A stretch of DNA of 64,000 nt from a virus, in IMG/VR virus record IMGVR_UViG_3300007177_000055, positions 61,410-125,409 of that record; one strand, 5' to 3'. Below the pieces are notes generated by a model. It did no database searches and had not been told where the DNA came from. It saw nothing but the letters and a program-made list of their open reading frames with translations. Made by a program: the position numbers and the translations under genes. Below, piece after piece: positions 2,594-52,610 of the stretch. Position 1 is the first letter of the stretch. Every line of letters begins with the position of its first letter.

Positions 2594-2722
2594 TAAACTG
2601 TACAAGTTAACTATTAAAGTGTTGTATTAAATAAGTTTGGTTATACCGAATATATACAAAGCAAAATTGACAGCCTAAATAAACATATAAACTTAACAAG
2701 GTTAACCTTTCATTTCATACTT

Positions 2723-21745: not shown

Positions 21746-21818
21746 GCCAGCTTAGCTCAGGGGTGGAGCGACTGCCTTGTAAAGCAGTAAGTCGTCAGTT
21801 CAAGTGTGACAGTTGGCT
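21746..21818 (+). tRNA. tRNA-Thr(TGT)-like with 8-nt anticodon loop (possibly pseudo-tRNA)
   Basis: Acceptor GCCAGCT/AGTTGGC, TAGCTCAG D-arm, anticodon stem ACTGC/GCAGT with loop CTTGTAAA, T-loop TTCAAGT with a G53-G61 mismatch. Confidence 0.7.
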
Positions 21819-24800
21819 TACCCTAATTGACCGCTATCTGTACGAGGACCTGTAGGAGTCCAATGTCCAGAACCTCGCTGACCTAAAGGCATAGGTTCGT
21901 GTGCCGCAGCTTCAGACTGTCGATGTCTAGCTGCTGGGTCTTGTCCTATCAACTCAACTACCGAAGCATAATTTTGAACCATAGAGACATAAGTAGTTTC
22001 ATTTTCAACTCCTGCAGCTTTAGTAGCTACTAAGTCAAAACGTTCTTTGACCGGTTTAGCCATAGGCTCAGCGTGCTGATTAGCTTTAACGCCTAAGTCA
22101 GCTTTTACTTGATAAACTGCCGGTGCAACAGTCGCTTTCATAGCAGCTGCACCAGCGCTTACTAACGTGTAGAAAGCTACTTGTTGAGCAGGATCAATAG
22201 CTGATGCTAATTCAATTTGAGCGTTACGTATAGAAGCTGAACTATAAGACTGTGTTACTGGAACTTCTGCTCGCTTTTGGAAAACATGCCTTGGTTTAGT
22301 AGGCACTACTACCTGAGGTTTACGTACACTTGAGTTAGGTTTAACCTGCAAAGATTTTAAAGAAGACTGATAAAGACGGTTGGCGTCTTCTTGTACTTTT
22401 TTTTGGTACTCCACTCGAGATAAACCTTGTATTGTTTTAGCAGCCCGCATTTCTAAGATCGTACCACCACGTCTAGGTATACCTAGGCCTTCACGTTTAG
22501 AACCGTAATCGCCATAATAAGACTGTAGTTCTCGATCTAAAGCACTTTCATTAACACCCGTCATAGTACCTGTATGCCCACCCAAAGGGTGCTCCCGAGT
22601 AGGCATTTCCGAGACGTGGAGTTCTACGTATTGACCTCCAGCTCTTTCAGTACGCTCAGCTACAGAGTATTGACTGCGAGGATCTGACCCTAAAAGGTTG
22701 TCCGCGCCCGGACGGTAAAAACGAATTTTATCCGATAGCCCAGCAGCTCTAACTTTAGTTTCCAGGGCAGCCAACACAGCTTGGTTGTAACGCAGTTCAC
22801 CTAAGGTGCCTTCAGCTTTCTCACTACCCCGCTGAGAATCAGCATGTCCAGCAGCAAAGACTATAAAAGGTACCTTAGAAGAACCCTGATAAATTGCATT
22901 TTGATTTACTGCCGAATGTGCTTTTCTAATATCTCCGCTAACTGAAGAGTTTGAAGACCTAAAGTTACGACTGTCAGCCTCACCCCACTTACCTGTGGTA
23001 AGAGAAGTAAAGTACCTCTGCCATATAGGTCGGGGCGCTTCTCCGTGAAGGTGTATACCAGTACTAGCTCCACCGGCATCAACTCGATCTTGTATACCTA
23101 AAGCCTGACCATAGGTAACTGTTTGTCCTAGTTTCACACGAAGGGAACTCATGTGAAGTTGCTTGGTAATTGAACCGTCAGCGCCGCGAATAGTAACTCT
23201 ACCGTATTTATTATCTATACCTATAACAGTTCCGCTTTGCATAGCAGGAACAACTACATTACTGCTGCCCTTTCTTAGCAAAACAATATCAAAAACAACT
23301 TGTTTAGTACCTTTGATAATACTTTCTACCCCTGTTTCATAAATAGGGCTCTTAACGTACCCTGTATAATTACCGGTGCCAGCCCAGTGATACTTTAACT
23401 GAGAATATTTAGTAACAGCTCTACCTCCTGAAAAAACAGTGTAAGGAGCCTGAGTGACAGAATCAGTAAGCTCAGCCAAACTGCTTTGGCCTAAACCAAA
23501 AGGAACTTTATACTCTCCCTTCAAAGCTCGCTGGTAAACTCCCATTAACTCTTGTTGACTTTTCACAGGCTGACCATAGTAACTCTTACCGCTAAGTGTG
23601 GGAAAAGACGCCCATACAGGGGCTAACTTTGCCATAACTTCAGGCGTAAGTTTTGCGGTATAAGGATCAATACCTAAAGCTCTGATTTGGGCTAGAGCCG
23701 CTCTATCTTGATCAGCTGGAGTAAAAGACTTAGTTTTAGAGAACCTTGCGTAGGTCCCAGGCATAAATTGATAAGCACCAGCAGCAGCAGAAGCGTACCC
23801 TCCAGTAACATTAACGCTGTCTGGGTGCTTGCTCATATCTGTAAAGTACTTATAGCCATAAATAGTTTGGTAACCTTTAGGACCCAAAGTCCCTTCGGCA
23901 TACCTAATAGCAGTTAATATAGCTCGGGCATTATCGTTGAGGCCAGTATAACCAAACTCTACAGGCCCTCCTAAAGCTTGACTTAACGCGTCAACCGCAC
24001 CACCAGCTGCAGCGGCTGCAGCATCCTTAACACGTTGTAAGCCAGCACTTACTGAGTAAACTAAGTCTTTAGCTCGACCACCTAACCAGTCCATAGCTTG
24101 CTGCCACCAAGGCTTTTCCTCAGTCGCTACAGAATCTTTAAAAGTTTGTTGCAAAACCCAACGTTGCTGTTTACGAGTAGCCTTATAAGCTGTTATTTGT
24201 GAAGCAAACCGTCGGCGCTTAGTAGCTACGTAGCTATAAATAACCTCTTGCTGGGTAGGTTGTAAAACAGAATACAACTTACCGCTTTGAGTAAAAGCTT
24301 CCGGATTACGTTCTCTGTCAGGTTCACTACTACCAACAGGTCTAAAGGAACCTTCTAAACCCACTAAAAGTAAAGGTAAACCTACTAAACGGGCAGCAGC
24401 CTTACCTAGATTTTGAAGTGCCGGAGCGGTAAAACTGTAGATTAACCGCGCAGCTTGATTTATTGCAGGCAAGTACTTTGTTAGAGCAAGTGCAGAAGCA
24501 CCCGCCGAAACACCTGAAACATTAGAAACCTTTTCTATAGTATCGTCTGTTAAGTTTTGAGAGCCCGGCATTTGATATGTCCTATAGCTTCGCATGCTCA
24601 CTGAAGTGAGCTGTCTAATTATTAAAGCTGGAGCTACTACTCTTGCTGTAGCAGCAAAACCTGTACCTAGCCCTAAAGCAGAAAACACAGCTTGAATTCC
24701 AGTCAAAGCTGCGCCTGAAATTAGAGCTGCACCCACTGCATTTACACCAGCTTGAGACCAACTCTTACCAGAGTTAACAACTTCGTCTAAAACATTAATG

Positions 24801-27800
24801 CTAGTCAAGCCTAAACCTAGACGGCCACCCAATAAAGTACGAGCTGCACCTAAAGGATGACCTAAAAGATTAATTCCTTTTTGGAAAAGATTAAGTTGAG
24901 TCCCGCCATTTGTTACAAAACTCTGGCGCGGTTCGTACAAAGACTTAACGTAATCACCAAAACGGCCTTTAATACCTACTTTAACTCCCAGTGGTAATAC
25001 CCGATCAACCGGCCGATCAGCTCTTTTTTCTGCTAAAGCCTCTCTAATTTGGGAACGAGGCCCAGATCTTACTAAAAAGCCGAAAGCCCTTTCCCTAATA
25101 CGATCAGATAACTTAGTGCCTAAGTAATTGTCAGGCAGCACACCAGTTGCTTTATAAACCGCGTAGTCCCTAGGTGCTAGTTGTAGCGTACGACTAGAAG
25201 AGTCATACACAAAACTTCTTGGGCCCAAAGAGTCAGAAGTTAAAAGATTCCCAAGACGCACTGAATCTAGTTCGTCAAAAGAGCCAGTTACTAGGTTACT
25301 GATGTTACCTAAACCACCAATGTCAAAACCATAATGCTGAGCATTCAGTAAAGTACCCGCACGAGCTAAACGACTGTTAAACCCACCAGACAGATAATTA
25401 CCAAAACTAACAGCTGCTGCTTCCCATGGACGTGACTTAGGATCATTCTTTAAGAAAAAGGCTTCAGTACCCGCCATAGATCCTAAACCCTGACCTGCAT
25501 TCCAAGCAGCCATTTCTATATTTGCAGCTACTACCGCACCTAAAGGTCCACCGCTTAATAAAGGCACCGAAGCAAACAAAGCTAAAGCCGCTAAAGTAGT
25601 ACCTCCGATAACACCACCTACACGCTGATACTGGTTAAGCCCAGCGTACCCAGCCCTGCTGTATTGGTTAATATCTTGCATACGATCAGCTATCTGAGAA
25701 GTCCTCCATTCTCTAACTGAATCCAGCCCTAAAGCTCCGGCTCCTAAAGCAGACCACAAAGCAGTGCTTACGCCATTATTAGCAATAAGCCCTAACAAAC
25801 CAGTTTGTAAAGACTTAAACTCTAAGTCCGCTGCATCCTGACTAATTTGCCAAGGCGTCCGGTCAGTGTTTAAAGTCTTAGTAAGTGCGGTAACACTTTG
25901 GTAGGTTCCTGCTGCAGACAAAAACACACCCGCCCCAGACTGAACCAAACCTTTAGCTGCCAAAGGTAATTTATTGACCAGATTACGTGTGACAACACCA
26001 AGACCTACCACACCAGCAGCTAAAAATCCAACTCGTTGGGCATTACGGTAAGGTGCATTTTGAGGATCGGCTTGGTCCTGCTCGTAGAACTCACTAGTAA
26101 CGCTCTTTAGCCAAGGGTTATCTTGAACTAAAGACTGAGCCATAAAGAAAGATCCCATGACTTGTCTAGTACGTCCACCTGCAGCAGAAAAAGCTAATCC
26201 AGCTGCATTTTCGTAGAATTCTGAATAGGCTGTTTGATACTGAACTTTTCTAGAAGAAGCAGTTAACTGGCTAACGCTAAAACCAGCAGTAGCTAACCCT
26301 GAATATTCTAAGGAAAAACGACTAAGCTTCCCACTTAAACCGACCAGTCGACCAGGCCAAGGACTATTAGCCCAAGCACTTCTAGCTTTACTGGTCAGCT
26401 GTCTAGCCATAGGTAAAAGCCTACCCAGCTGACTTAAGAAAGACCTAATTGGCTGTAGAGCACGCATTGTAAAGCGAATGGGTCTTTCTATAGGACTCCC
26501 TAAGATCTGCCTTTTAGTCGTTTCTAGTATCTGAGTGTTAATATCTTGACCCAAAACCAGGGCCAGACCACCTACTAAAGTTGCACCTAACAAAACAGTA
26601 TTTAGTAGACCCAAAGAATTTGGGCTGTTAATAGGCACTAACGGGGCCAAACCTAAAAACAAACCTAACCCTAAAGCCCTACCGCTCTTAAGAGACCTCC
26701 ACTTAGGGCCTATACCTAGAATCTTCCGGCCACCCACAAAAGTTTTAAGAGACTGAACCTTTGAATAATCAGGCTTTATTTCACCTGCAGCTTCTTCAAT
26801 GGCCTTTATAGCATCAACTTTGTACCTTTCGTAAGCTATACGGATTCTACCTTGCCAGAAATAAGCCGCAGGCCCAGCCAGAGTACCTGCTACAGTAGAA
26901 GCGTGATAAGTGAAGGAGTCTTCATCACCGTAATTAAAGCCTAAGTTTTTACTAGTAGCCTCACCTAAGTAATTAAAAATACTGGTCATAGCCCAAGCCC
27001 CTAAACCAGCAGCTATAGCTACCCGTCCTAGCCGGCCAGTTAACTTTTTACTCTTAACTATCGTACTGGATTCTGTATTCCAACGCATCTTAGTATCTGC
27101 CAACAACAAGACGCTGCCACCTGCCCAACTTATACCAGTAAGACTTTGCTTCAGTTGGTTACGCTGACGTTCGTTTAAGTTAGCTTTAGTGGCGTAGGCA
27201 TCTCCTATAGCTTCACTAAGCTGCCAACTGGCAGCAGCTCCAAGCACTACACTAGGAGCAACTACACCACCTAACTTAGCTGCAGTTCTACCAAACTTAA
27301 CAGCTGGCTCAAAGAAAGTACCTACTTTTGCAGGCAAACTAGCTAATCGACCGATACCGCTGAAAGATCTTAAACCTAAGCTAGCAAAGGCAGCCCCCAC
27401 TGCACGTTTTGAGCCACGCACTGTACTCTGTACACCCCGCCCAGTAACTCTATTGATACCGCTAAACAAACTTCTTAAGTTGTAAGCCCCCTGAGACTGA
27501 GTTAAAGACCTAAGAATTTCTCGGGAGTCTTCATATAAAGTAGCTGCAGCAGTACGCATTACATACCCGTACCCCAAGCCCCGCCTTTGAGAATTAAGTG
27601 CCGCTAAAGAACCAGCAGTTATTAAAGGTGAGTAGGAGTAAACAGGCTCTTGGGGACGAGTGTAATAAAAGTTAGCTGCTGTAGAATCAACCCCAAACTG
27701 TCGTTGACGCATCGCTGACAACAACAGATTACTAACTTGTGACTGGGACCTAAAACCTCCCTGGTTTAGAATACGTTCTGCATAACCAGCAGTACCAAAG

Positions 27801-30800
27801 TAACGATTAGTAAATTCAGGTTCGGGGTCAAAAACTGGACGGCCCATCAAAGCAGGACTAAATAGTGCTTCGTCTAGCTCAATATCAGGATTAACAGCTC
27901 GATACAACCGACGTCGGTGCATTGAGTCTCTGCGGTTACCTGTATCTGCACCATATTCTTCCATGCGACGACCTTGCGAATTAAATTCAACCGGTAACAA
28001 GCCAACTTGCTCTTCCATAAAAGACCCAACGGTTTCTGGCAACAAAAACCGAGCTATAAAACCGAAACCTGGAATGTCCAAAGCTTTTGTTCTAAAGGAG
28101 TAAAGCGCCGGGTCTGCTATTTGAGCTATTACATTAGTAGCACTAAACAACGTATTCAACCCTGGCGCTCGACCTACAGAACTTAAAAATCCAGCCGCAG
28201 TAGCGGTAACTGGTTTAAGTAAGCTTTCGTTAAGGCGATCAAAAGTAGTTAAGAAAAAGTTCTGAACGCGATTGTTGCTAGCTTTGTTTATAGCTAAGTA
28301 TCCACCTATAGCTGCTAAAGCAGCTAAAGTAGTAAAGCCAGCTTCAGCTGCCCAGGCTTTACCTATAACACTAAACACACCTAATCCTACAGCAAGTTCC
28401 GTACTCTTAGCAGTTACAAAATAACCAGCTTGAGTACGTACCGCCTCATTAGGCGAACTCAAGTAAGAAGCACCAGCTAACAACTCGTAACCTTGAACTA
28501 CATTAAAGTAACTCATTAGAGTACCAGTGGAACCTGCTAGACCTTCTCCGATTAAACCGGAGTAGCCTCTTTCCCTAAAGGTTTTGTTAATAGAGCTAGC
28601 TAAAGGCTCATTGAAAGTTTGTGTTGGCATTATCGCACGTTGACGCTTTTTAGCTCCCCAACCTGCACTTTGGGCAGTAGTAGTTTCAAAGGTATCTCCC
28701 AAAAAGTCTTCGTGTAACAATTGAGCTACATTAGCAAAATGGTTTAGGGCATTTAAACGACCATTTATAGGATCAGCATCCCAAGCCTGAGCTACTTTAG
28801 CTTCCAACCCATATTGATCTGCTATTTTCCCCAACCTGTTACCTACGTCAAAGCTGTTGTTAATACTAGTAAAAAGACGATAAGCTCCTTTACCACTAGG
28901 GTTATAGATTTCTCTCATTCGAGTAAGCAGCGTGTCGCGAACTTGACTTTCCCTAAGTAAAGCTGAATTACCCGCTGCTGTTTGGAATTCTTCTAACAAC
29001 CCAAATCGGGCAGCATTATAAGAATTTACTAAGTCTCTAGCTTGTGTTTCAGATATACCGCTAGGAACTGCTCTTACTAGTAAGTCTTTAGTACCCCCAG
29101 AACTGTTGGCCTCAAAAATAACTTGACCTTTACCAGAAACATAATCAACACGAACCCTAAAGCTCGAATTCATCCGGGCCTTAATGTCATCAAAAGAGTG
29201 AATATAAGGTTTAACCCTAGATGAAGTAGCAAAAGTAAACGCAGCTAAACCAATGCCAGCAAAAGAAGCCACACTAGCAGCTGTCAATGTAGCTAACAAG
29301 ACTCCACCAAACAAAGCAGAAGGCAAAGAGCTTTTATCGAAAGCCTGGCCAGTAGAAGCCAAAGTGCTAGTAAAGTAAGAAAGAAAAGGAGTGCGACCTA
29401 AGATTTGTTCTTTGTAATACCCAGAATAGTTGCCTAAATCATCACCTGAAGCTTTACCCGTAGCAAAGTCTAAAAAGTCAAATAGCCCCTTTTTCAGCTC
29501 GTTAACGCTAAATTCACCACCTGCTCTAGCAGAATAGTTAGCTAGATTAGGAAAATAGGCTTTGCCATATCGTTTGGCTAGCCAACTAGCTACGTGATGT
29601 TCATACAACAAACCCATCAAGATTTCTTGAGGCCTTTGGTTAGATATACGAATTAACTCTTGTTGACGTTGACGGATAGCTAAGGATAAACCCTGACTAC
29701 TACCAAGTTGTGCGTATTCTTCACTGGTTACCGCTTTCTGAATAGCAGCTGGTTGTTGTCTAGGCACAGCACTAAAAACGGAATAATAAGCACTAGCTAC
29801 ACCACGGTTGGCGCCTATCAACGCAGCTAGCATATAGGCTTGATCTCTAGTAGTCGTAAGACCTTTAACCATGGTCATTTCAGACCCAGAAATGTCAGTG
29901 TAAGCCGTAGTAGCTTGCACATAACTCCTAAAGCCGTTCTTAGAATCTGAGATACCCAAAGGCCCTATTAAAGAGGCAAACATATTAGGGTTATCTTGAT
30001 AAGCACCAGTTAGCTTTTGAACATTAGCTACACCTAAAGCAGAACCTAACAGTTGTTGTATTAAACCACCTAAACCTGGGTTTCCTTGACTAGGAACGGC
30101 ACCGTATTTAGCTGCTCTACCTACAGCCAATTGAGCTTGGGTGTAATTGTTTTGACCAGTAAGGAAAAAAGGCAGTAACAGGTTTTGTAGCCCGTTCATT
30201 TCTCCCTTCAAACCAACAGTCAGTAAGTTGCCAGCCGCTAAAGCCGCCCCAATTAAAGCTAGACCTGCTCCGTACTTAAAACCTTTGCGACTAGCTAGAC
30301 TGAAACGTAAGCCCGCAGTTTCTATTAGAGCCGGACGCAAAGACTGTAGCTGTAATAGTGCTCTTGGATCAGAGTCTTTAGCAGCTTGTTGTAAAGCTTC
30401 CTTTAAAGTACTCCCACGTACACCTTCTGCTGCCAGCAAACTTTTATCGCTGGCTGCAAAATTACGTTCATATAAAGCCCATATTTGGCTTTGGTACCGA
30501 GCTGTAGCACCTACAGCTGGCTTGCCTTCAGCAAACTTAGAAAATATAGGATCTTCAGCTCCAGCAAATACACCAGCTCTGCTTAAAGCAGCGCCGTAAA
30601 AAGCTCCGTAAAAGGAACCTATGTAGAGCTGCCGTGCAAAGTTTTCTCTAGCTACCTTTTCAGCTGACCATTCTGGGTCATTAGCTTTAGTAGACTCTAA
30701 TTCATATATCAAACCCAACGGGTTAAAAACAGACGATTTAGGTGAAACTAAGGAACTAGCTGCTAAATAAGGTAATAAATAAGGGGTTAGTCTACGTAAA

Positions 30801-33800
30801 CGTCTGCCCAACACCAGCGAAGTTTTGTCCGGACTTAAATCAAAGACGCTTTGAAAAGCTCCTTTAACTATGTTGGGAGCTACTAAAGTAGGAACCTGAG
30901 ACCAAGTAACTAATTTTTTAGCTAAACCTCCACTAACGCCAACTAAATCTCTAGCAGTAGACCAATTCTTTAAATCTTGGGCTACACCCTTGTCTCTAGC
31001 TTTGGCCATCAACACGGAAATATCAGCTGCGTTATCCCCTCTAAAAGTACGGTACCCAGACCCTAAGTAACTAAAGGCACCTACGGTACCCATAGCTGCG
31101 TACATCTGCGATTCAGGGAAGAATGTCACTAAAGATGCTAAGTCTGAAGCTTGTGTCCAAAAAGCAGCTCCTTGGTCATCCTTAACAAACTGTCCACTAC
31201 TAGCTACAGCGCTTCTTTTTCGCAGCAAATCTTGTATAGGACTTCTGGGTGCTCCGTAAGTTAAGCCAAAAGGACTCATCGGAGTAGAACCAGCACCTAA
31301 AATCGGCATAAATTGGAAACCTGCCCCTACAGCTGTAACTCCAGTACGAGGGTCACTTCGACCAACTACAGTGAACTGGAAGATAGGTGTAGGTATTTGC
31401 AGAGCAAAGTTATAAGTTATATCCTGCCTAGTAACATCAGGCGTCTCTAAGCGTTTAGCTAAGTCCCTGAGCATCTGAACCCTAGCCAGGTATATTGGAT
31501 TGTTAGAGCGGTTAGAGTCTTGTAAGGAGCTTACTATATTTCCTTTAGCCAAAGCACTTTCTGGGTCTATTTCATAAGACTTATCTTTGTCTTTACGGTA
31601 AATCGTATTAGCCAGAGTAGCTAAAAAAGACACCGAAGCCTGCGCAGTTAATATTCCAGCTAATGCACCAACCAGTGCACCAGTCTTAGAAAAACGCACA
31701 CCCATATATCTAAGACTAGACTTACCACCTTTTTCAATACCGATAACTTCGGTATAGTAGTCTCTACGCCAGGCACTTTCACCCGTAAAACGGTACCAAC
31801 CCGAAGACTTACCGTTGTTTAGTATTTCATCTACTGATCTATCGCCGCCCAAGTCTAAACGCTTAGTTCTTGTTTCAGGGTCAGGAGGCTGAACTAAATT
31901 CCATTGTCCTTTAGGACTTACATTACGCTCAGTAATTACGACTTGACCTGAACCAGATTCCCACTTATAGCTTCCTGAGTATACGTTTAGTAAGTTCTTA
32001 GAATTACCACCAGCAGTACGTACAACTTGACCTCGCTGTATAGGTACGTTCCCAGTTTGAGCAAAAGGTCTTCTATTTACGATGTCTGTCAGGTTGTTAA
32101 CGTCGTAATTAACATACTGAACTTGGCGTTGGTGCAAAACGTGACCCCCAAACCAAGCACCTGTAGCTAGAGCCATTGTGGCCAAAGGCTTAGGTACTAC
32201 ACCAGTAAAATAAGTTTCGTTCCACCTAGTCCAGTCTTCTTGGTTTTGAACTTTGTAACTGTTTGAAATCTCAGCTCCAAGTTGCGTAAATAAATCAGCT
32301 CCTTGAGGCTGCATGTAATAGTTATCAAAGATACGGTCTAAGACTAACAACGACCCTAACTTAAAGAAACCAGAGCGAAACTTACCAAAAGGACTAACGT
32401 CTTTAAAACCACCAGCAGTAAGAAAACTAGCTGAATTACGAGCGTTACTAAAGTCTACTTTTTGTTCCCGTAAGTTTAGTAAGGTAGGTCCAAAGTTCCG
32501 CCCCCTTAACTGAAGTTCTTCAAAAATAAGACGATTCTGCTTGAGGAAAATGTCCTGACTGGTTTGGAACACTTCCTTAACGGAACCTTGGGTGATAAAA
32601 CTGGCTGCCTGACGACCAATACGACTTACAGCTTTAGTTAAAGAAGTAAAGCCAGGGCTAACTAAAGAACTAGCGGAACGATCTGATCCAGGTTCTATGC
32701 TTTGTCCCCCTACAGCTTTAGTACGAGTTGAATAGTTGCCGATTAGATCCCTTATCTCTGGCAACCACAACCAAGGGCTAGCAAAGATAAATCGTCCGGT
32801 CTGATCAGCCGCGCCAGCCAAAGCTCTAATGCGCTCAGTACCTATATTTTTCAGAGTTAATACACTCTTGTATTCTCCGTTTTCTCGCAATTGTATTTGA
32901 GGTAGTTCTCTGGATAGCCTCTGACCCTCTTCCCAAGCTTCTTGTTTAGCTCTTTTTTCAACGGGATCACGTGGGTCAGCCGTCATTACATACCCTAAGA
33001 ACGGTCCTAAAAAGTTATCCCAAACGCTAGAATCTATGCGACGAAATAAACCTATTAACCCTAGAGGTCCGGAAGTTAAGCCTTTAGGTTTTATCTCAAA
33101 ACTGGAAGTGTCATAAACAAAACCTAGTTGTTTGCGTTCCAGTTCTATTAGTTCTACAGCTGTAGTGCTAGCAGTTATACCTTTAATGCGTGGTAAACGA
33201 GCTTCTTCAGTTAAAGTACGACTTCCACTAGGACCATCAATATAGCGAGGCAAGTTCCCTACATCAGGTAGAGTAAGTTGGCGAGATTTTATTAAATCAT
33301 CTAGTTGAGTTGAGGACTGACCTGGTGCCAAAGTAGCTTTAGCTCTTTCTAAAGACTCGATAGTGTTCTGCTCTAGTAAGTACAACATGTTCTTACTGAG
33401 ACTTGTACCGTCTGCTGCCATTGCTCTTTGGCTGGCTACGGAATAAACTGTGGAGTACCAACCATCAATCATCTTACTTCTCACACCATACTGAGCCATA
33501 GCATCAGCTGCTTGTTGCTCTATATGAGCTCTAAGCAGAGTAACACCGTGGCTAAAAGCAAAATAACTACCTATAGCTTGTGCTGTCTGCACTGCTACTT
33601 CCTGACCAAAAGCTACGATGCGCTCTACAGGTCCGGCATCTTGCTTTTGTCTATAAGCTGAACGATAAAGCTTTCTTAGACTACCGTAATCTCTGCCTGC
33701 TTTAGCGTCTTCTAAGTCTTGTAGCCAGTAAAAGCCAGTAGCAGTATCCAACGCCCGACCAACTGCCGCTCCCAAAAATCCTATTAAACCCAAACCGGGT

Positions 33801-35197
33801 TTATACAAGTCAGTGTTGAAGGTAGCGTTTAGTGAGTTTCCTATACCAGGATCACCTAGCTGCCGATCCATTTGTTTCAGCCAGAAATTAGCCGGCTTAT
33901 TGCTTACTAAAGAATGAAAGTCTTGATAAACACTAACTTTAGTATTGGGGTGATCAGTAAAGAAAGACTGCGGCATCTTGGTAGGTAGCCGCTGCAGCAT
34001 ACGCGCAGGCCCTCCTACTCCTCTTTCTTTAGAAACTGTCGTAACATCTACAAACAACAAGTCCCTTACATTTTTAGGGAAACTTCGGTAGTCCTTTTGT
34101 AAGGCTAGGTCTCTAAGGTAACTAGACCCTAAAACGTCTGCAAACCGACTGGGGTTAGCTGACATATTCTCAAAACCGTACTTTTTAAGGCCCTTTAGCT
34201 CCCTGGCCAAAGCATCTGCTAACTTCTTGTCGGTTAAATAACGAACCTTTTCTAAAGTCTTGTAAGCACTGGCTTGAGAAAAGTTATAAGAACCTACTAA
34301 GAGTTTACTATCAATAACACCCGTCTTAGAGTGTTGCAGTAGTTGCTTAATGTAGTCTGTTGGTTGTAAATAAACTTCTACTCCGGCCACGCTTAGTTGA
34401 GACAACAACTCAGCTGTAGTCTCTACATTGCCTCCCGCTTTAGTCCCTTTAGGGTTCTGACCATAAACTTTAACGTCTAAGCCACGTTCTTTAGCACGTA
34501 TCAAAGCCGCTGCCACTTTTTGGTCAGTCATATACGCTTCTGATATATAAACCCGGTCCTTTGCCGAGTTTATATCTTTGATCAACTTAGAAACAAAACC
34601 ACGACCCACGCCTGGACCTGTAACAAATACTGAGCCGCTCTTTAAAGATGCAGCCAAACCCCTGAGGTCACTGTTTTTAGTTAAACTACCAATAAACTTC
34701 TGAATTTTAGCATCATCAGCCAAAACGGCCGGGCTAGTACTACGTATAGCAAAGTTAATTTGCTCTAAATGTGAACGTTGAGAACTTAGAATTGTGTTGA
34801 AGTTACCAGTAGAAGTTAGGCTTTCTACTCCTGGTCGATAAACCTGCTTAAGGTGTATATCTAGTAAGTTCTGGTTCGTTGAGTTAGCTTTATAAGGACC
34901 TACATCTTCTAAAACAGGCGTAGTAGCCTTAACTACAGCTAGGTCTGCTCTTGACTTTAGGTAATCTGTGTTTCTACGACTACCTTCATAAGTTGCAGCA
35001 CCAGCATTAACATAGAGCTGACTGAACTTATTTAAGTAACGATTCTGACTAGGTTGGGATTTAACTGAATAAAACGATCCCTTTAAGCTGCGTTCTGGGG
35101 CACGCTGGAAAAAAGCTCGGGATTGTTCACCTACAGCTTCATAGCCGTAGAGAGACTCTGCTCCAGAAGTATAGGTTCCAGACAGAGTATCAGCCAT
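21818..35197 (-). CDS. giant (4459 aa) tape-measure-like virion protein: N-terminal PLD domain, hydrophobic Gly/Ala-rich core, C-terminal lysozyme + M23 peptidase + amidase_3
   Basis: HSKTGVID..GSYNFS (HKD); AIRYAEGT..SAAAGAYQFM (lambda-R-like lysozyme); HMSSLRVKLGQTV..STGIHLHGE (M23); AAGH..GE..VELH..ILEM (amidase_3). Confidence 0.85.
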   Translation of the reverse strand: MADTLSGTYTSGAESLYGYEAVGEQSRAFFQRAPERSLKGSFYSVKSQPSQNRYLNKFSQLYVNAGAATYEGSRRNTDYLKSRADLAVVKATTPVLEDVGPYKANSTNQNLLDIHLKQVYRPGVESLTSTGNFNTILSSQRSHLEQINFAIRSTSPAVLADDAKIQKFIGSLTKNSDLRGLAASLKSGSVFVTGPGVGRGFVSKLIKDINSAKDRVYISEAYMTDQKVAAALIRAKERGLDVKVYGQNPKGTKAGGNVETTAELLSQLSVAGVEVYLQPTDYIKQLLQHSKTGVIDSKLLVGSYNFSQASAYKTLEKVRYLTDKKLADALARELKGLKKYGFENMSANPSRFADVLGSSYLRDLALQKDYRSFPKNVRDLLFVDVTTVSKERGVGGPARMLQRLPTKMPQSFFTDHPNTKVSVYQDFHSLVSNKPANFWLKQMDRQLGDPGIGNSLNATFNTDLYKPGLGLIGFLGAAVGRALDTATGFYWLQDLEDAKAGRDYGSLRKLYRSAYRQKQDAGPVERIVAFGQEVAVQTAQAIGSYFAFSHGVTLLRAHIEQQAADAMAQYGVRSKMIDGWYSTVYSVASQRAMAADGTSLSKNMLYLLEQNTIESLERAKATLAPGQSSTQLDDLIKSRQLTLPDVGNLPRYIDGPSGSRTLTEEARLPRIKGITASTTAVELIELERKQLGFVYDTSSFEIKPKGLTSGPLGLIGLFRRIDSSVWDNFLGPFLGYVMTADPRDPVEKRAKQEAWEEGQRLSRELPQIQLRENGEYKSVLTLKNIGTERIRALAGAADQTGRFIFASPWLWLPEIRDLIGNYSTRTKAVGGQSIEPGSDRSASSLVSPGFTSLTKAVSRIGRQAASFITQGSVKEVFQTSQDIFLKQNRLIFEELQLRGRNFGPTLLNLREQKVDFSNARNSASFLTAGGFKDVSPFGKFRSGFFKLGSLLVLDRIFDNYYMQPQGADLFTQLGAEISNSYKVQNQEDWTRWNETYFTGVVPKPLATMALATGAWFGGHVLHQRQVQYVNYDVNNLTDIVNRRPFAQTGNVPIQRGQVVRTAGGNSKNLLNVYSGSYKWESGSGQVVITERNVSPKGQWNLVQPPDPETRTKRLDLGGDRSVDEILNNGKSSGWYRFTGESAWRRDYYTEVIGIEKGGKSSLRYMGVRFSKTGALVGALAGILTAQASVSFLATLANTIYRKDKDKSYEIDPESALAKGNIVSSLQDSNRSNNPIYLARVQMLRDLAKRLETPDVTRQDITYNFALQIPTPIFQFTVVGRSDPRTGVTAVGAGFQFMPILGAGSTPMSPFGLTYGAPRSPIQDLLRKRSAVASSGQFVKDDQGAAFWTQASDLASLVTFFPESQMYAAMGTVGAFSYLGSGYRTFRGDNAADISVLMAKARDKGVAQDLKNWSTARDLVGVSGGLAKKLVTWSQVPTLVAPNIVKGAFQSVFDLSPDKTSLVLGRRLRRLTPYLLPYLAASSLVSPKSSVFNPLGLIYELESTKANDPEWSAEKVARENFARQLYIGSFYGAFYGAALSRAGVFAGAEDPIFSKFAEGKPAVGATARYQSQIWALYERNFAASDKSLLAAEGVRGSTLKEALQQAAKDSDPRALLQLQSLRPALIETAGLRFSLASRKGFKYGAGLALIGAALAAGNLLTVGLKGEMNGLQNLLLPFFLTGQNNYTQAQLAVGRAAKYGAVPSQGNPGLGGLIQQLLGSALGVANVQKLTGAYQDNPNMFASLIGPLGISDSKNGFRSYVQATTAYTDISGSEMTMVKGLTTTRDQAYMLAALIGANRGVASAYYSVFSAVPRQQPAAIQKAVTSEEYAQLGSSQGLSLAIRQRQQELIRISNQRPQEILMGLLYEHHVASWLAKRYGKAYFPNLANYSARAGGEFSVNELKKGLFDFLDFATGKASGDDLGNYSGYYKEQILGRTPFLSYFTSTLASTGQAFDKSSLPSALFGGVLLATLTAASVASFAGIGLAAFTFATSSRVKPYIHSFDDIKARMNSSFRVRVDYVSGKGQVIFEANSSGGTKDLLVRAVPSGISETQARDLVNSYNAARFGLLEEFQTAAGNSALLRESQVRDTLLTRMREIYNPSGKGAYRLFTSINNSFDVGNRLGKIADQYGLEAKVAQAWDADPINGRLNALNHFANVAQLLHEDFLGDTFETTTAQSAGWGAKKRQRAIMPTQTFNEPLASSINKTFRERGYSGLIGEGLAGSTGTLMSYFNVVQGYELLAGASYLSSPNEAVRTQAGYFVTAKSTELAVGLGVFSVIGKAWAAEAGFTTLAALAAIGGYLAINKASNNRVQNFFLTTFDRLNESLLKPVTATAAGFLSSVGRAPGLNTLFSATNVIAQIADPALYSFRTKALDIPGFGFIARFLLPETVGSFMEEQVGLLPVEFNSQGRRMEEYGADTGNRRDSMHRRRLYRAVNPDIELDEALFSPALMGRPVFDPEPEFTNRYFGTAGYAERILNQGGFRSQSQVSNLLLSAMRQRQFGVDSTAANFYYTRPQEPVYSYSPLITAGSLAALNSQRRGLGYGYVMRTAAATLYEDSREILRSLTQSQGAYNLRSLFSGINRVTGRGVQSTVRGSKRAVGAAFASLGLRSFSGIGRLASLPAKVGTFFEPAVKFGRTAAKLGGVVAPSVVLGAAASWQLSEAIGDAYATKANLNERQRNQLKQSLTGISWAGGSVLLLADTKMRWNTESSTIVKSKKLTGRLGRVAIAAGLGAWAMTSIFNYLGEATSKNLGFNYGDEDSFTYHASTVAGTLAGPAAYFWQGRIRIAYERYKVDAIKAIEEAAGEIKPDYSKVQSLKTFVGGRKILGIGPKWRSLKSGRALGLGLFLGLAPLVPINSPNSLGLLNTVLLGATLVGGLALVLGQDINTQILETTKRQILGSPIERPIRFTMRALQPIRSFLSQLGRLLPMARQLTSKARSAWANSPWPGRLVGLSGKLSRFSLEYSGLATAGFSVSQLTASSRKVQYQTAYSEFYENAAGLAFSAAGGRTRQVMGSFFMAQSLVQDNPWLKSVTSEFYEQDQADPQNAPYRNAQRVGFLAAGVVGLGVVTRNLVNKLPLAAKGLVQSGAGVFLSAAGTYQSVTALTKTLNTDRTPWQISQDAADLEFKSLQTGLLGLIANNGVSTALWSALGAGALGLDSVREWRTSQIADRMQDINQYSRAGYAGLNQYQRVGGVIGGTTLAALALFASVPLLSGGPLGAVVAANIEMAAWNAGQGLGSMAGTEAFFLKNDPKSRPWEAAAVSFGNYLSGGFNSRLARAGTLLNAQHYGFDIGGLGNISNLVTGSFDELDSVRLGNLLTSDSLGPRSFVYDSSSRTLQLAPRDYAVYKATGVLPDNYLGTKLSDRIRERAFGFLVRSGPRSQIREALAEKRADRPVDRVLPLGVKVGIKGRFGDYVKSLYEPRQSFVTNGGTQLNLFQKGINLLGHPLGAARTLLGGRLGLGLTSINVLDEVVNSGKSWSQAGVNAVGAALISGAALTGIQAVFSALGLGTGFAATARVVAPALIIRQLTSVSMRSYRTYQMPGSQNLTDDTIEKVSNVSGVSAGASALALTKYLPAINQAARLIYSFTAPALQNLGKAAARLVGLPLLLVGLEGSFRPVGSSEPDRERNPEAFTQSGKLYSVLQPTQQEVIYSYVATKRRRFASQITAYKATRKQQRWVLQQTFKDSVATEEKPWWQQAMDWLGGRAKDLVYSVSAGLQRVKDAAAAAAGGAVDALSQALGGPVEFGYTGLNDNARAILTAIRYAEGTLGPKGYQTIYGYKYFTDMSKHPDSVNVTGGYASAAAGAYQFMPGTYARFSKTKSFTPADQDRAALAQIRALGIDPYTAKLTPEVMAKLAPVWASFPTLSGKSYYGQPVKSQQELMGVYQRALKGEYKVPFGLGQSSLAELTDSVTQAPYTVFSGGRAVTKYSQLKYHWAGTGNYTGYVKSPIYETGVESIIKGTKQVVFDIVLLRKGSSNVVVPAMQSGTVIGIDNKYGRVTIRGADGSITKQLHMSSLRVKLGQTVTYGQALGIQDRVDAGGASTGIHLHGEAPRPIWQRYFTSLTTGKWGEADSRNFRSSNSSVSGDIRKAHSAVNQNAIYQGSSKVPFIVFAAGHADSQRGSEKAEGTLGELRYNQAVLAALETKVRAAGLSDKIRFYRPGADNLLGSDPRSQYSVAERTERAGGQYVELHVSEMPTREHPLGGHTGTMTGVNESALDRELQSYYGDYGSKREGLGIPRRGGTILEMRAAKTIQGLSRVEYQKKVQEDANRLYQSSLKSLQVKPNSSVRKPQVVVPTKPRHVFQKRAEVPVTQSYSSASIRNAQIELASAIDPAQQVAFYTLVSAGAAAMKATVAPAVYQVKADLGVKANQHAEPMAKPVKERFDLVATKAAGVENETTYVSMVQNYASVVELIGQDPAARHRQSEAAAHEPMPLGQRGSGHWTPTGPRTDSGQLG

Positions 35198-42710: not shown

Positions 42711-43798
42711 TAATCAGTCACCGGGTATGTGACTTTGATGTCACCAGGGACTAACAACTCTCCTACATTAGCTTGAGTAGTAGCAGCTATACCAGTGACG
42801 GCTATAGACCTAACAAAAGGTTTTACAGCATTAACTAAAGACTCTGTATAGAAGGTTTCCCCAACAGAAAGAGAATTTAGAACACTATTAACTAAGACGT
42901 TAATATTTTCAGTTAAAGCACCTAAGTTAGTAGTTAACCCACGAAAAGGTTCAACTACTAAGGTAAAATCTAGACGACGTTGAGTAACTTGGCCTAAAAT
43001 AGGAACTACACCTGCAGCTACAGAAGGGGCTATGTAGTCTTTAAGCTCTTTTAGTTGATTAGGGGTAAGTAGCTGCAAGGAATCTACCCAGATTTCTACA
43101 TAACCACCAACTACAGTGCGAACAAAAGCTCGGGTTACTAACGGATATTCCATTAATTTTAAAGTTAGCTCTTCTATAGACCCAGTATTGGTAGAAGCTA
43201 AGTACTGACCAACTCGCTGACGGTAAGTAATATCCGATTCAGTATCCCGGCCACCTGTAATATCGCCTAAATAAGTAGTAGTGTGGACATTACCTACCAC
43301 AAACTGCACCTCTGGCCGCTCTAAGCAGAATAATTTTGTTCCAGCTGCAACATTACTAGAGTCACCTGAAGCTAAGGCTTTAACCAGCACTCGAACCTCA
43401 GTGTTATTGTACACCTGTACATTAGGTGTAACTATTACATACTGGTTACCGTTTGACAAGTTTACTAAGGTTGTTCTGCCAGTCAATACATAAGAAGAAA
43501 GGTTAAATTCACTTCCTATTATGGCTAAAACATAACCTTGAGCATAAGTCTCGGTTAAGCGCTTAACTCCAAAAGATTCTGCTATAGCGTCTAATTGCGA
43601 ACCCGTAGCATTGAGTAAAGAGGAATTCTCTAATTGCTGTAGCTTAAGATCTTGAGATACAGCAACCGCTGCTACACCCCGCGAAAGAGTATAAACTATT
43701 GATCCGGGGTCAGTGTCTAACACTAGAGGACTACCCGACTTTGCAATAGCAAGCAAATAATCTTGTTGTATTTCCTTAGTACTTCTAACGTTAATCAT
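42710..43798 (-). CDS. baseplate J-like wedge protein
   Basis: PGS, NATGSQLDAIAESFGVKR...AQG, G..SNV.AG, ITGGRDTESD..YRQR. Confidence 0.9.
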   Translation of the reverse strand: MINVRSTKEIQQDYLLAIAKSGSPLVLDTDPGSIVYTLSRGVAAVAVSQDLKLQQLENSSLLNATGSQLDAIAESFGVKRLTETYAQGYVLAIIGSEFNLSSYVLTGRTTLVNLSNGNQYVIVTPNVQVYNNTEVRVLVKALASGDSSNVAAGTKLFCLERPEVQFVVGNVHTTTYLGDITGGRDTESDITYRQRVGQYLASTNTGSIEELTLKLMEYPLVTRAFVRTVVGGYVEIWVDSLQLLTPNQLKELKDYIAPSVAAGVVPILGQVTQRRLDFTLVVEPFRGLTTNLGALTENINVLVNSVLNSLSVGETFYTESLVNAVKPFVRSIAVTGIAATTQANVGELLVPGDIKVTYPVTD

Positions 43799-44178: not shown

Positions 44179-44759
44179 TGTAATCTTAAAGGACTAGTAC
44201 TATCATCGTAGTTTCCATAGCTCAATAAATCCAACCCTTTTGTATCTACTACCCAACTTACAGTTCCGCTAGCTAAAGGTTGAGATCCTCTAAAAGCTTG
44301 TACACAAAACAAGTAGTTTCCAGCAGGCCAAATACCAGAACCTGTTAGAGTACATTCCTCTGCTAAAGAGGAAACACCCCCTATAGCTATAAAATCTGAG
44401 TCCTTGAACAAAGACCACCCTAAAGAAACATCTTTATAAGAAGCAGGTAAAGCCAACTTAACTCTTAGGCTGCCGCCTAACACACGACATATAGGGGCTG
44501 GTCGAGGTAAGTCAGGAATGATTAACTTAACTCCATAGTTGACTGCAGTAACACTAGGTATCTTTACAGTAGCCTCATCAGCAGTAACAGAGGTTACTAT
44601 CCCTCTTAAATCTTGACCAAAAAGGATTATATTTCCTGGGATAAGCTGTTTATTTAAGTTTCTTAGAGTGATTGTTTTACCCTGTTGCTGTAATACAACA
44701 AAAGTATTAACGTCAACTTCTGTTAAGTAAGTCTTATTAGCAGGCTGATTGATATCCAT
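44175..44759 (-). CDS. hypothetical baseplate-region protein
   Basis: 194-aa ORF coupled to neighbours. Confidence 0.65.
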   Translation of the reverse strand: MDINQPANKTYLTEVDVNTFVVLQQQGKTITLRNLNKQLIPGNIILFGQDLRGIVTSVTADEATVKIPSVTAVNYGVKLIIPDLPRPAPICRVLGGSLRVKLALPASYKDVSLGWSLFKDSDFIAIGGVSSLAEECTLTGSGIWPAGNYLFCVQAFRGSQPLASGTVSWVVDTKGLDLLSYGNYDDSTSPLRLQ

Positions 44760-46312
44760 TATTCTCCTTTGTTAGTAAGATCAACCCGAACAGGTTGATT
44801 TGCAGATTGTTGTGGAAATACAGGCGGAGCTTGTGGAGAAGAGTAGGGTTTTACCGGAGTAACAACAGGAGGTGGAGGTAAGCTCCCACCCGTTGCATCA
44901 GCCGGTTGTTCTGTAGATGCATCAGGTGATGTAGCTGTTTCAGCTGTTAAAGCACTGGTTTCAGTTGGTGAAGTTGTTGCAGCCCCAACCTCCGCTGAGG
45001 CTGCACTCTCTGTTGGTGAAGCTGCATCAACTGGAATTGCAGCTTCAGGTGTTTTACCCACACCTGTAACTTTACTGACTAACCCAGCTAAAGCAGCAGC
45101 ACCTTTTTGTGACTGCACTGAAAGAATTTCAGTACCTTTACTTTCGACTATACCTGCAAAAGTAGCCCAACTAGACTCAGCTATACCTGAAGTATCTCCA
45201 CTTAGAGCTTGACGTACTAAGGCTTCACCGCCTTGAGTTAAAACTTCTGAAATATAATTAGCTGCTATGGGTGGCAAAGAAGTTTTTAGTAAGTCATTAA
45301 CGGGACTTAAAATAGTCCCTACCGGATCAGTTACTGCATTAACTAACCCATTAAGCTTGTTCAGAGATTCACTAACACCAGGAACAGATCCAACTAAACC
45401 GGTAACTGAAGCTAATGCTCCAGAAACATTACCTTCACTTACAGCTGCGGCTAGTGCTGTAATATTAGCTGCTGTGGCAACTACTTCAGTAATACCTAAA
45501 GAGCTAAGCTTTTCTAAAGCATCTAAGTTAAGAGGAGTCCGGGCCCCTATACCAACCCCGCCCATGTTGATTTGGACCACACTACCATCTAAAGAAAGTA
45601 CTCCTGTAGCTGACACCTTAGTAGCTCCCAAAGAACTGACATTAGTGACAGAGCCAGAAAGACTAAGAGCTCCAGTAGTAGTTACCTGACCCATACCAGT
45701 GGCCGCTACTAAGAAATTTGTTTGTGCTTGCATCTTGATAGAATCAGCAGCAAAAACCACATCTTTAGCAGCTCGGCCTACTAAATATGCTGCAGCCTGA
45801 ATATTAACAGATTCTTCTGCTGTAAGTTCATATCGACCAGCTACTCCTTGAGCTAGACCTGACTTAAAGTCAGCTTTTGTAACTTGAACTTTTTGATAAC
45901 CACTAGCGTGTACAGCAGAACCAGATTGGCGAAAATACTCTGAAGCATAACCGTAGTCTTCACCAACTACAGACCGACCATATGATCCAGATTGAACCGC
46001 AACTAAGCTATTAGCCTGCAACCAATAATGATCAATTATCTGAGTAATACTAGTAAAGCGTTGATGTAAAGACTTACCGTCTAAGACAGTAACCGCCGAG
46101 TTAACAGCAAACACTGGCGTTCTGATGTCAAACTGAGTGGTAATATCAAAGCGAGCCAAAGGCTGCCAAACAAAACCTATGGACTTAGAACTTTGGTGAC
46201 TAACTCCACTGCCATAATCTTTACTTAAAACATCAGCAGCTTTAGCAAGATCAACTTTGAGTTGTTGCATCAAGCTTTCATAAGCTGCAACATCTTCTTT
46301 TAAACTGCTCAT
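44759..46312 (-). CDS. baseplate spike-like protein (gp5/gpV-type beta-helix) with S/T/A/P-rich tail
   Basis: 8-residue beta-repeat region (…QVTTTGALSLSGSVTNVSSLGATKVSATGVLSLDGSVVQINMG). Confidence 0.6.
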   Translation of the reverse strand: MSSLKEDVAAYESLMQQLKVDLAKAADVLSKDYGSGVSHQSSKSIGFVWQPLARFDITTQFDIRTPVFAVNSAVTVLDGKSLHQRFTSITQIIDHYWLQANSLVAVQSGSYGRSVVGEDYGYASEYFRQSGSAVHASGYQKVQVTKADFKSGLAQGVAGRYELTAEESVNIQAAAYLVGRAAKDVVFAADSIKMQAQTNFLVAATGMGQVTTTGALSLSGSVTNVSSLGATKVSATGVLSLDGSVVQINMGGVGIGARTPLNLDALEKLSSLGITEVVATAANITALAAAVSEGNVSGALASVTGLVGSVPGVSESLNKLNGLVNAVTDPVGTILSPVNDLLKTSLPPIAANYISEVLTQGGEALVRQALSGDTSGIAESSWATFAGIVESKGTEILSVQSQKGAAALAGLVSKVTGVGKTPEAAIPVDAASPTESAASAEVGAATTSPTETSALTAETATSPDASTEQPADATGGSLPPPPVVTPVKPYSSPQAPPVFPQQSANQPVRVDLTNKGE

Positions 46313-50120: not shown

Positions 50121-50590
50121 TTTACTAAGAAAGTGGAGTAAACTTCAGCTTGGCCGGTGTAGCCAAAACGAACAGCTTCTGGCGGGGCTGATATAGGTAG
50201 GGGGTGTAACATTACACCTTCAGAAACAGTACCCACTGCAGGAGCTAAGTTATTTTTTACATACTCAGGCAGCAAATCTAAATGCGGCTTGAACCCAGTT
50301 ATGTAAGGTCGACCAGTATCTCCGCTTTCAAAGGCTATAACCACACCATCTCCATAAGAAAGCGTAGTCTGGGAACCTACACCGTGACTAGAAGCATAGC
50401 GATTAGCGTTGTTTGTAACAGTATAAGCATACCCTAAAGCTGGTATATAAACTTGAGCCGTGCCAGCTAAATGATCTACGGGACCTATACTACACACTAT
50501 TCCGTAGTGAGTACAGTTACGCTTAGCGTCGTAGTAATCACGCTGTTCTAAAGGACGAGGACGCGTATTTAAGTCTAGATGGGCACTCAT
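50117..50590 (-). CDS. gp5/gpV-type OB-fold (spike N-terminal domain) protein
   Basis: G.V..I.P....G..QV.IP ... G.G.Q..L..GD.V.IAFE.GD..RPYI.G. Confidence 0.65.
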   Translation of the reverse strand: MSAHLDLNTRPRPLEQRDYYDAKRNCTHYGIVCSIGPVDHLAGTAQVYIPALGYAYTVTNNANRYASSHGVGSQTTLSYGDGVVIAFESGDTGRPYITGFKPHLDLLPEYVKNNLAPAVGTVSEGVMLHPLPISAPPEAVRFGYTGQAEVYSTFLVK

Positions 50591-52560: not shown

Positions 52561-52588
52561 AAAAAAGCTGCAGGGTTAACTGCAGCTT
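52561..52588 (-). terminator. Rho-independent terminator/attenuator after the tail tube gene
   Basis: AAGCTGCAG-N6-CTGCAGCTT 9-bp stem running into a T-run on the minus strand. Confidence 0.72.
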
Positions 52589-52610
52589 AACTTATTTAGG
52601 AGACAAAAGT

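Follow-up and report, generated by a model that had tools for sequence, protein, structure and literature searches.

The last gene of a late operon in the virus record IMGVR_UViG_3300007177_000055 (IMG/VR) is large enough to raise a question of its own: what does a phage do with a single protein of 4,459 amino acids (aa) that carries one enzyme at its N-terminus and a row of cell wall hydrolases at its C-terminus? The record is linear, 125,409 bp long and, according to CheckV, ~72% complete; the stretch analysed here, called the window, is its final 64 kb. At positions 21818-35197 of the window, on the minus strand, lies an uninterrupted open reading frame (ORF) of 4,459 codons and a stop. With no internal stop in its entire length, the giant gene named in the original prediction, which had been made from the DNA letters alone, is genuine. 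The reading favoured here is that the product is a polyvalent entry protein, carried in the virion and ejected, which would cut the cell wall and deliver a nuclease head; its chances of being correct are put at about even. An entry role is favoured because the gene belongs to a late virion operon of conserved gene order, its enzymes are of the entry type, its cargo is modular and the protein is free of cysteine. The source phage, judged by its predicted proteins, is contractile-tailed and distantly related to the Microcystis phage Ma-LMM01.

Three different peptidoglycan hydrolases had been predicted at the C-terminus, of which two are now firm and the third is probable. The first, a lambda-R-type lysozyme, is supported by the lambda chains 1am7 and 3d3d, which match over chain residues 4-134 at E 7e-8 and align their glutamate of the SEGT motif, which we take to be catalytic, with that of YAEGT in the giant (E3768). 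Lysozymes of the lambda R type belong to GH104, and Pfam reports no lysozyme family in the giant, whether the whole protein or pieces of it are scanned. The second, an M23-type metallopeptidase, exceeds the Peptidase_M23 cut-off of 28.7 bits both in the whole protein (31.1 bits) and as a piece (37.1 bits), with an HLH at aa 4049-4051 and the histidine of QLHMSS at aa 4015. Its nearest homologues are Nostoc and Anabaena phage hubs: the peptidase domain of the hub from Anabaena phage A-1(L) (8kea_A) aligns with aa 3922-4071 at E 1e-23, and the region is 39-40% identical to the baseplate hubs of seven Nostoc, Anabaena and Dolichospermum phages. The N-terminal HxxxD zinc motif is not evident in the 8kea alignment, where both sequences show V(F/Y)D. 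The A-1(L) domain, part of the hub protein gp15, is active nonetheless: PMC10966104 reports that it brought about lysis of Anabaena cells in vitro.

The third hydrolase, an Amidase_3 domain, falls below the Pfam cut-off of 27 in the giant itself (14.2 bits, E 0.047). Amidase_3 is nevertheless the top family in three of the four aligned homologous domains (best E 7.5e-4), two of which are only 30-32% identical, and it accounts for 29 of 30 clusters among the ESM-Atlas feature matches (score 0.91-0.92). Residues H4118, E4134, H4194 and E4249 are invariant across the four aligned homologues, the distant pairs being 30-32% identical, and are presumably the His/Glu/His zinc ligands and catalytic glutamate of the family. 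An AlphaFold2 model of the region has low confidence, with a predicted local distance difference test score (pLDDT) of 54.9. Queried with this model, Foldseek returns Amidase_3 enzymes as its best rows (E ~2e-3, TM 0.41-0.50), and VIA places Amidase_3 in the top 21 rows (Z 8.1-9.2, root-mean-square deviation 3.6-4.2, 132-141 aligned) by a thin margin over lumazine synthase, an unrelated fold, at Z 8.0. An earlier model, built from a four-row alignment of close relatives, was unusable (pLDDT 39.9). A profile of the amidase alignment found no amidase among the PDB sequences, its only row being a chance match to plastocyanin (E 0.66), and a word-index search with the region recovered two fragments of close relatives and nothing else. 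Taken together, the profiles and the model make an Amidase_3 identity quite likely.

At the other end of the protein, aa 205-335 score 63.7 bits against PLDc_2 in the whole protein and 67.8 bits in a 480-aa piece, well over the cut-off of 27, which places there a domain of the phospholipase D (PLD) superfamily. Both HKD motifs lie where they had been located: motif 1, HLKQVYRP/TSTGNF, at 34799-34855 (H115, K117, N132) and motif 2, HSKTGVID/GSYNFS, at 34277-34333 (H289, K291, D296, N305). Motif 1 had been called degenerate, and the HKD aspartate does occur in motif 2 only; yet motif 1 is genuine rather than a chance look-alike, since the H, K and N of both motifs are conserved in 12 of 12 family members in a local alignment. 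Because of this invariance, the N-terminus is predicted to be a single-chain, two-lobed PLD enzyme. Its combination with wall hydrolases in one late-operon giant, the core of the original prediction, is borne out.

Whether such a domain would act on lipid or on nucleic acid had been left undecided in the original prediction. The sole solved relative found is the endonuclease Nuc (1byr, E 4.6e-4), and the best NCBIfam match is DrmC of DISARM (E 3.7e-11, 43 bits against a cut-off of 133), with NucT also below its threshold (20.8 bits against 211); neither of these nuclease-specific models exceeds its curated cut-off on the giant. A word-index search with the PLD region yielded six weakly matching PLD proteins. 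In one metagenomic giant of 3,529 aa (P0016), the PLD position is taken by a staphylococcal nuclease domain (aa 24-150; Pfam E 5.8e-20 among nine members scanned, PDB thermonuclease E 7e-6), which directly precedes the signature segment that follows PLD in other members. The exchange in P0016, the endonuclease as sole solved relative and the presence of DrmC and NucT near the top of the NCBIfam matches together make a nuclease role more likely than a lipase one.

The long middle of the giant places it in a family of its own. When 1.84 billion representatives were searched exhaustively by phmmer with aa 1152-2351 as query, 16 proteins reached E <=0.001: the query itself, a fragment of 187 aa and 14 further giants (1,863-7,770 aa), all from metagenomic contigs of 9-205 kb. 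Where source names are given, they read "muramidase (phage lysozyme)" or "murein DD-endopeptidase". Judged by these matches, a body of ~2,000 aa defines a rare family of giants spanning 1,863-7,803 aa. A whole-protein word-index search found only three relatives (2,452-7,804 aa), and tblastn with aa 480-3479 found nothing at E 0.01 in 50,697 phage records. Local jackhmmer adds two more distant members, a 4,151-aa protein of the Microcoleus phage My-WqHQDG and gp120 of Ma-LMM01, through the ~150-aa signature after the PLD position (E 2e-29 and 8e-21, Z set to 1e6); this link is the weaker one, resting as it does on one or two segments.

Segment by segment, phmmer reveals a collinear plan in the family: PLD, the signature (aa ~430-590), two conserved blocks reaching to ~aa 1750-2350, a variable body and, at the C-terminus, wall enzymes whose set varies among the members. 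Among 23 family proteins, the giant included, PLD was found by phmmer in 14, M23 in 10, the lysozyme in five and the amidase-like domain in four. The closest distinct full-length relative, P0004 (4,148 aa, 50% identity over 2,191 aa), retains the N-terminus, PLD, the body and the last ~155 residues; at the position of the lysozyme, M23 and amidase it carries ~430 aa of unrelated sequence, and this replacement cassette (441 aa) has no match in PDB or Pfam. Even where the cassette is replaced, the C-terminal tail is retained (phmmer E 5e-44 to P0004 aa 3992-4144). The first 90 residues match only P0004 and P0002 by phmmer. On these alignments, wall-enzyme cassettes and the N-terminal enzyme are exchanged between relatives on a constant body.

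Little in the body itself suggests a membrane device. The middle had been described as Gly/Ala/Leu-rich, and glycine, alanine and leucine do make up 31% of it. It had also been credited with many membrane-like segments. Seven hydrophobic segments are present at a Kyte-Doolittle threshold of >=1.6 in a 19-residue window; shuffled sequence gives 4.3 +/- 2.0, and 44 of 300 shuffles reach seven, so the count is not significant and exceeds nothing that composition would supply. The membrane conduit proposed from these segments loses its support with them. Pfam finds nothing above noise in aa 351-1151, the body shows invariant Pro/Gly-rich motifs, and segments beyond aa 2350 are present in just 4 to 9 of 24 proteins.

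The absence of cysteine is extreme. The giant has none in 4,459 aa against 49 expected from the 1.1% cysteine content of 56 other ORFs of the same genome (Poisson P ~5e-22), and its family has three in 104,365 residues (24 proteins, some redundant). Such avoidance fits a protein that stays unfolded or refolds outside the cytoplasm, for example one threaded through a tail tube. Three other ORFs of the late operon on the minus strand, 44759-46312, 57299-58984 and 61910-62941 (517, 561 and 343 aa), are also cysteine-free and may represent more ejected or internal proteins. The 517-aa protein has a body rich in Ala, Gly, Ser and Val, has no tblastn match in the phage collection, shows no similarity to MaMV-DH01 ORF120 (E 0.45) and yields only weak gp5-spike-like Atlas leads (0.81).

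The setting of the gene points to the virion. The giant is the terminal gene of a late minus-strand operon whose members, labelled with PHROGs and Pfam, run in the order major head protein, sheath, tube-like, hub-like, spike-like and gp6-like wedge proteins, terminase, a 194-aa gene and the giant (Table 1). Distant homologues of the head, sheath, tube-like, hub-like, wedge and terminase proteins occur in the Ma-LMM01/MaMV group of Microcystis phages, and the sheath and terminase are related to those of Microcystis and Microcoleus phages. Because of this homology of virion and terminase proteins, the phage is assigned a contractile tail and its host is most likely a cyanobacterium, as deduced solely from these protein relationships. 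The proposed cyanophage affiliation is upheld: the nearest relatives are cyanophage genes, and the M23 domain resembles the Nostoc/Anabaena hubs.

The same order of terminase, small gene(s) and giant is kept in the IMG/VR relatives, in Ma-LMM01 (gp118-gp120) and in My-WqHQDG. In all seven related contigs whose upstream sequence extends for 3 kb or more (five from IMG/VR, plus Ma-LMM01 and My-WqHQDG), the giant is preceded by a terminase homologue, and a homologue of the 194-aa gene lies directly upstream in six of six IMG/VR contigs. In Ma-LMM01 and MaMV-DH01, terminase, a 211-aa gene and the giant are followed by a strand switch. The stop codon of the 194-aa partner and the start codon of the giant share one base (TAATG).

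The partner appears beta-rich, and its homologues in two contigs (L007:4334-5311 and L008:5911-6906) contain an insertion of ~130 aa that, compared by eye, resembles a Calx-beta-like surface beta-sandwich domain. Such features would favour an exposed structural protein over a chaperone of the cytoplasm. The terminase matches Ma-LMM01 gp118 at E 4.7e-74 and, at 1,238 aa, is roughly twice the size of its intein-free homologues, which have 592-604 aa (747 aa in one case). It probably contains two inteins, since Pfam locates LAGLIDADG_3 at aa 371-449 and both Intein_splicing and PT-HINT at aa 1027-1156. The terminase of the phage that encodes P0004 is likewise enlarged, to 1,236 aa.

Several observations complete the description of the locus. 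No near-identical DNA was found among the 50,697 phage records, and a prophage and host search by core alignment against 185,579 species genomes gave 84 pattern matches, none of them confirmed. A scan for a terminator and promoter 3' of the giant gene found neither. ARAGORN reports a tRNA-like gene at 21746-21818 on the plus strand, with a four-base anticodon (tgta) and no identity assigned, which is convergent with the giant and abuts its stop codon. In this lineage the tube-like gene is followed by the hub-like gene (656 or 623 aa) and no chaperone/tape measure pair is seen, as at window positions 50590-53333 on the minus strand and at 96910-99550 in MaMV-DH01 (L004).

Table 1. Segments of the giant protein and genes of the late operon, with positions in the window.
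Feature	Position	Strand	Basis
N-terminal leader, aa 1-95	34913..35197	-	no family; kept solely in close relatives
Predicted two-lobed PLD/HKD phosphodiesterase domain, aa ~100-340	34178..34900	-	Pfam PLDc_2 and motifs
Conserved family body, aa ~350-2350	28148..34150	-	no known family; shared among giants
Most widely shared body stretch (signature), aa ~432-591	33425-33904	-	
Lineage-specific Gly/Ala/Leu-rich body, aa ~2350-3700	24098..28150	-	composition; few relatives
Lambda-R-type lysozyme (lytic transglycosylase type), aa 3753-3876	23570..23941	-	1am7, 3d3d
M23-type metallopeptidase, aa 3922-4071 (Pfam core 3981-4053)	22985..23434	-	Pfam and 8kea_A
Probable Amidase_3 (N-acetylmuramoyl-L-alanine amidase), aa ~4108-4287	22337..22876	-	below Pfam cut-off
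C-terminal tail, aa 4300-4459	21821..22300	-	conserved; no Pfam family
Partner gene, 194 aa	35197..35781	-	homologue directly upstream of giant in relatives
Large terminase subunit with intein sequence, 1,238 aa	35816..39532	-	PHROG terminase match; Pfam intein models
gp6-like wedge	42713-43798	-	PHROGs/Pfam
Small spike-like protein	late operon	-	Phage_base_V E 8e-4, below cut-off
Hub-like protein, 656 aa	late operon	-	PHROGs/Pfam
Tube-like protein	52614-53333	-	PHROGs/Pfam
Tail sheath, 1,018 aa	53348-56401	-	PHROGs/Pfam
Major head protein	60563-61882	-	PHROGs/Pfam

With these features in mind, a course of events can be proposed for the ejected entry protein. The giant would be made late, translationally coupled to the conserved 194-aa partner, and from its setting we infer that it is packaged in the particle, a place in the head being likelier than a ruler's role in the tail. 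Since it has no cysteine, no disulfide could lock it, and it might pass through the tail tube as an unfolded chain when the phage infects. The C-terminal cassette would emerge first and attack cyanobacterial peptidoglycan at three bond types, with the lambda-R domain acting on the glycan strand, M23 on the peptide cross-link and the probable amidase on the bond between MurNAc and L-Ala. The body of ~2,000 residues would come next and may span the envelope. The two-lobed PLD domain would arrive last and would most likely serve as a nuclease on host nucleic acid, not as a lipase. The single-chain envelope drill of the original prediction is therefore kept in its entry role, which is the best reading, and not in its membrane conduit. 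A bolder version is more doubtful than probable: Ma-LMM01-type cyanophages may own a dedicated single-chain "injectosome", cysteine-free and stored in the particle with the aid of its 194-aa partner, that would open the wall with an exchangeable cassette and then bring an exchangeable nuclease warhead into the cell before the genome. The warhead would be PLD in most members and staphylococcal nuclease in one, and the body would be a new envelope-crossing device, a proposal held just as tentatively.

A number of points weigh against the ejected entry protein. Lytic domains at the C-terminus and hydrophobic stretches rich in Gly and Ala are typical of tape measures too, as in T5 Pb2, and no separate tape measure gene has been recognised in this lineage. 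Because the hydrophobic segments do not rise above chance, a body that spans the envelope is without support. The nuclease step draws on the displacement of a domain in a single relative and on sequence matches that are weak, and cardiolipin synthase is also among the NCBIfam matches of PLD (27.4 bits against a cut-off of 290). The zincin processing peptidase typical of polyvalent proteins is missing, there being no HExxH in the giant. No virion proteomics for Ma-LMM01-type phages was found in the literature, and the authors of the MaMV-DH01 paper call for mass spectrometry. Finally, the genome record is incomplete.

The alternative that survives best, though unlikely, is a tail tape measure or tail-lumen protein, with its C-terminal tail docked at the baseplate, its wall enzymes leaving first and its extra length folded back or globular. 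Lytic domains near the C-terminus and Gly/Ala/Leu richness resemble those of known tape measures, and since tape measures are also ejected the absence of cysteine is compatible. No other candidate was recognised among the 20 proteins of the window tail module scanned with Pfam and PHROGs, where the hub-like gene follows the tube-like gene with nothing between, and PhageMin_Tail (PF10145) was not found in five related genomes, including the complete Ma-LMM01 and one CheckV-100% record. The last 160 aa, kept despite cassette swapping, would suit a docking site; according to PMC10966104, the C-terminal helices of the A-1(L) tape measure bind the spike. A predicted complex of three copies of the spike-like protein (157 aa) with three of the last 160 aa reached 0.30 and 0.28 against a mark of 0.34, without controls, and speaks neither for nor against docking. 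Between the tube gene and the giant, however, lie the entire baseplate cluster, the fibre-region genes and terminase, and this placement is conserved. The giant matches no Pfam tape measure family, and phrog_10030 (E 0.0092) covers only the M23 core, aa 3995-4057. The lengths are awkward as well: at 0.15 nm per residue, proteins of up to 7,803 aa would give tails of more than 1 micrometre, and the MaMV-DH01 homologue (2,899 aa) predicts 435 nm against the 260-nm tail described for that phage. The invariant Pro/Gly-rich motifs form no obvious repeat-like ruler, and MaMV-DH01 has tail-module proteins of 1,160 and 1,359 aa that could be the ruler instead. That the giant is unlikely to be a simple ruler, as first proposed, is reasonable given family lengths of 2,898-7,803 aa and the gene position after the baseplate cluster and terminase.

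It is less probable again that the giant never enters the virion and acts late inside the cell as a membrane-associated factor for lysis or envelope remodelling, with PLD working on host DNA or lipid from within. Late operons often end in lysis genes, and no separate endolysin was seen in the record with the Amidase_2, Phage_lysozyme and Amidase_3 models (PF01510, PF00959 and PF01520), a screen that is uninformative since the record is incomplete and the giant's own weak amidase was also missed. A coding length of ~13 kb and a conserved body of 2,000 aa far exceed any known lysis protein, and the closest homologues of the M23 domain are baseplate hubs used in entry. Such a role would also leave the extreme cysteine avoidance unexplained, whether in the cytoplasm or in a late membrane protein, and sits poorly with the tight linkage to terminase and the virion operon. 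An exposed fibre-like appendage that digests extracellular matrix (extracellular DNA, sheath) and wall before contraction is very improbable: staphylococcal nuclease and Nuc-type PLD are typically extracytoplasmic, cysteine-free proteins are common among extracellular ones and the insertion in the partner homologues has its presumed surface-domain look, but Pfam and PHROGs find no fibre-type repeats, collagen, beta-helix or receptor-binding families, the composition is hydrophobic, and aa 480-3479 have no similarity to annotated tail fibres in the phage records.

The interest of the ejected entry protein lies in its hosts. Cyanophages control toxic blooms of Microcystis and Microcoleus, their entry into the host is poorly understood, and the giant family takes up 7-10% of the genome. 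Since a distant member exists in a cultured model, Ma-LMM01 grown on Microcystis aeruginosa NIES-298, its place in the virion, its processing and ejection and its enzymatic activities can all be tested directly. If ejected, the giants would be among the largest known injected phage proteins and a clear case of module swapping, of wall cassettes and of PLD for staphylococcal nuclease, on a fixed delivery chassis. If the injectosome were real, phages would have their own equivalent of modular secreted effectors, and if the giant proved to be a tape measure, the simple length rule for contractile tails would be overturned. The wall-cutting domains, once isolated, are candidates for enzymes that attack the walls of cyanobacteria.

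To date, the architecture appears to be uncharacterised in print as far as the searches reach. Literature searches returned unrelated papers and no description of it, with supplements and the Ma-LMM01 genome paper outside their scope; the My-WqHQDG preprint has no occurrence of phospholipase, giant, largest or tape measure, and the main text of the Ma-LMM01 transcriptome paper has none of gp118, gp119 or gp120. No experimental study of gp120, ORF143 of MaMV-DH01 or WOL31340.1 of My-WqHQDG was found. Newly recognised here are the identity of the terminase with its inteins, the conserved gene order, the giant family, its cysteine avoidance and the swapping of cassettes.

Among known systems, lytic tape measures offer a first comparison. 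T5 Pb2 is a tape measure with a C-terminal M23 domain that is ejected and proposed to aid envelope crossing. Such proteins share with the giant a long, Gly/Ala-rich chain and C-terminal peptidoglycan hydrolases; the giant differs in gene position, in being 3 to 10 times as long, in its N-terminal PLD and in having no family match beyond M23. T7 gp14, gp15 and gp16 (the last a transglycosylase) and the N4 virion RNA polymerase are very large ejected proteins, stored in the head and threaded through the tail, that cleave peptidoglycan or work in the cytoplasm before the DNA enters. T7 and N4 are short-tailed phages, their proteins show no sequence relation to the giant in any search and the enzyme order of gp16 is the opposite; the likeness would be one of analogy only.

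PMC5512222 (Iyer, Burroughs, Anand, de Souza, Aravind 2017), which covers N4 as well, deals with the polyvalent proteins of phages and conjugative elements. It describes those of phages as products of late genes that unite many effector domains in one chain, with lysozyme joined to nuclease domains, and that are proposed to be packaged and injected with the DNA. Like them, the giant joins several unrelated effector domains (PLD, lysozyme, M23 and a probable amidase) in a late operon. Unlike them, it has no HExxH and, by Pfam, no MuF or ART family, and a conserved non-enzymatic body of 2,000 aa dominates it; phospholipase D, HKD, M23, tape measure and transmembrane do not occur in the text of that paper.

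A closer parallel for the wall enzymes is gp15, the A-1(L) hub (PDB 8kea). Its C-terminal peptidase (Ser736-Trp899) is the part that matches aa 3922-4071, and its lysozyme-type region gives a weak second match. Like the giant, gp15 unites several wall hydrolases in a single cyanophage protein; gp15 is a virion component and was lytic in vitro (PMC10966104). The hub is an 899-aa baseplate protein with a barrel domain; the giant shows no match to a hub barrel and is encoded away from the baseplate cluster, and the window encodes its own hub-like protein.

The nearest counterparts in published genomes are Ma-LMM01 gp120 (YP_851134.1, 2,898 aa), MaMV-DH01 ORF143 (2,899 aa) and My-WqHQDG WOL31340.1 (4,151 aa), all very distant from the giant and annotated as "hypothetical protein". 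Neither gp120 nor WOL31340.1 matches the lysozyme, M23 or amidase domains of the giant, and the first 600 aa of gp120 gave no Pfam match. WOL31340.1 does share a two-motif PLD domain, placed internally at aa ~940-1190 rather than at the N-terminus. Like the giant, all three are huge and cysteine-free, follow terminase and one or two small genes, and come last before a strand switch.

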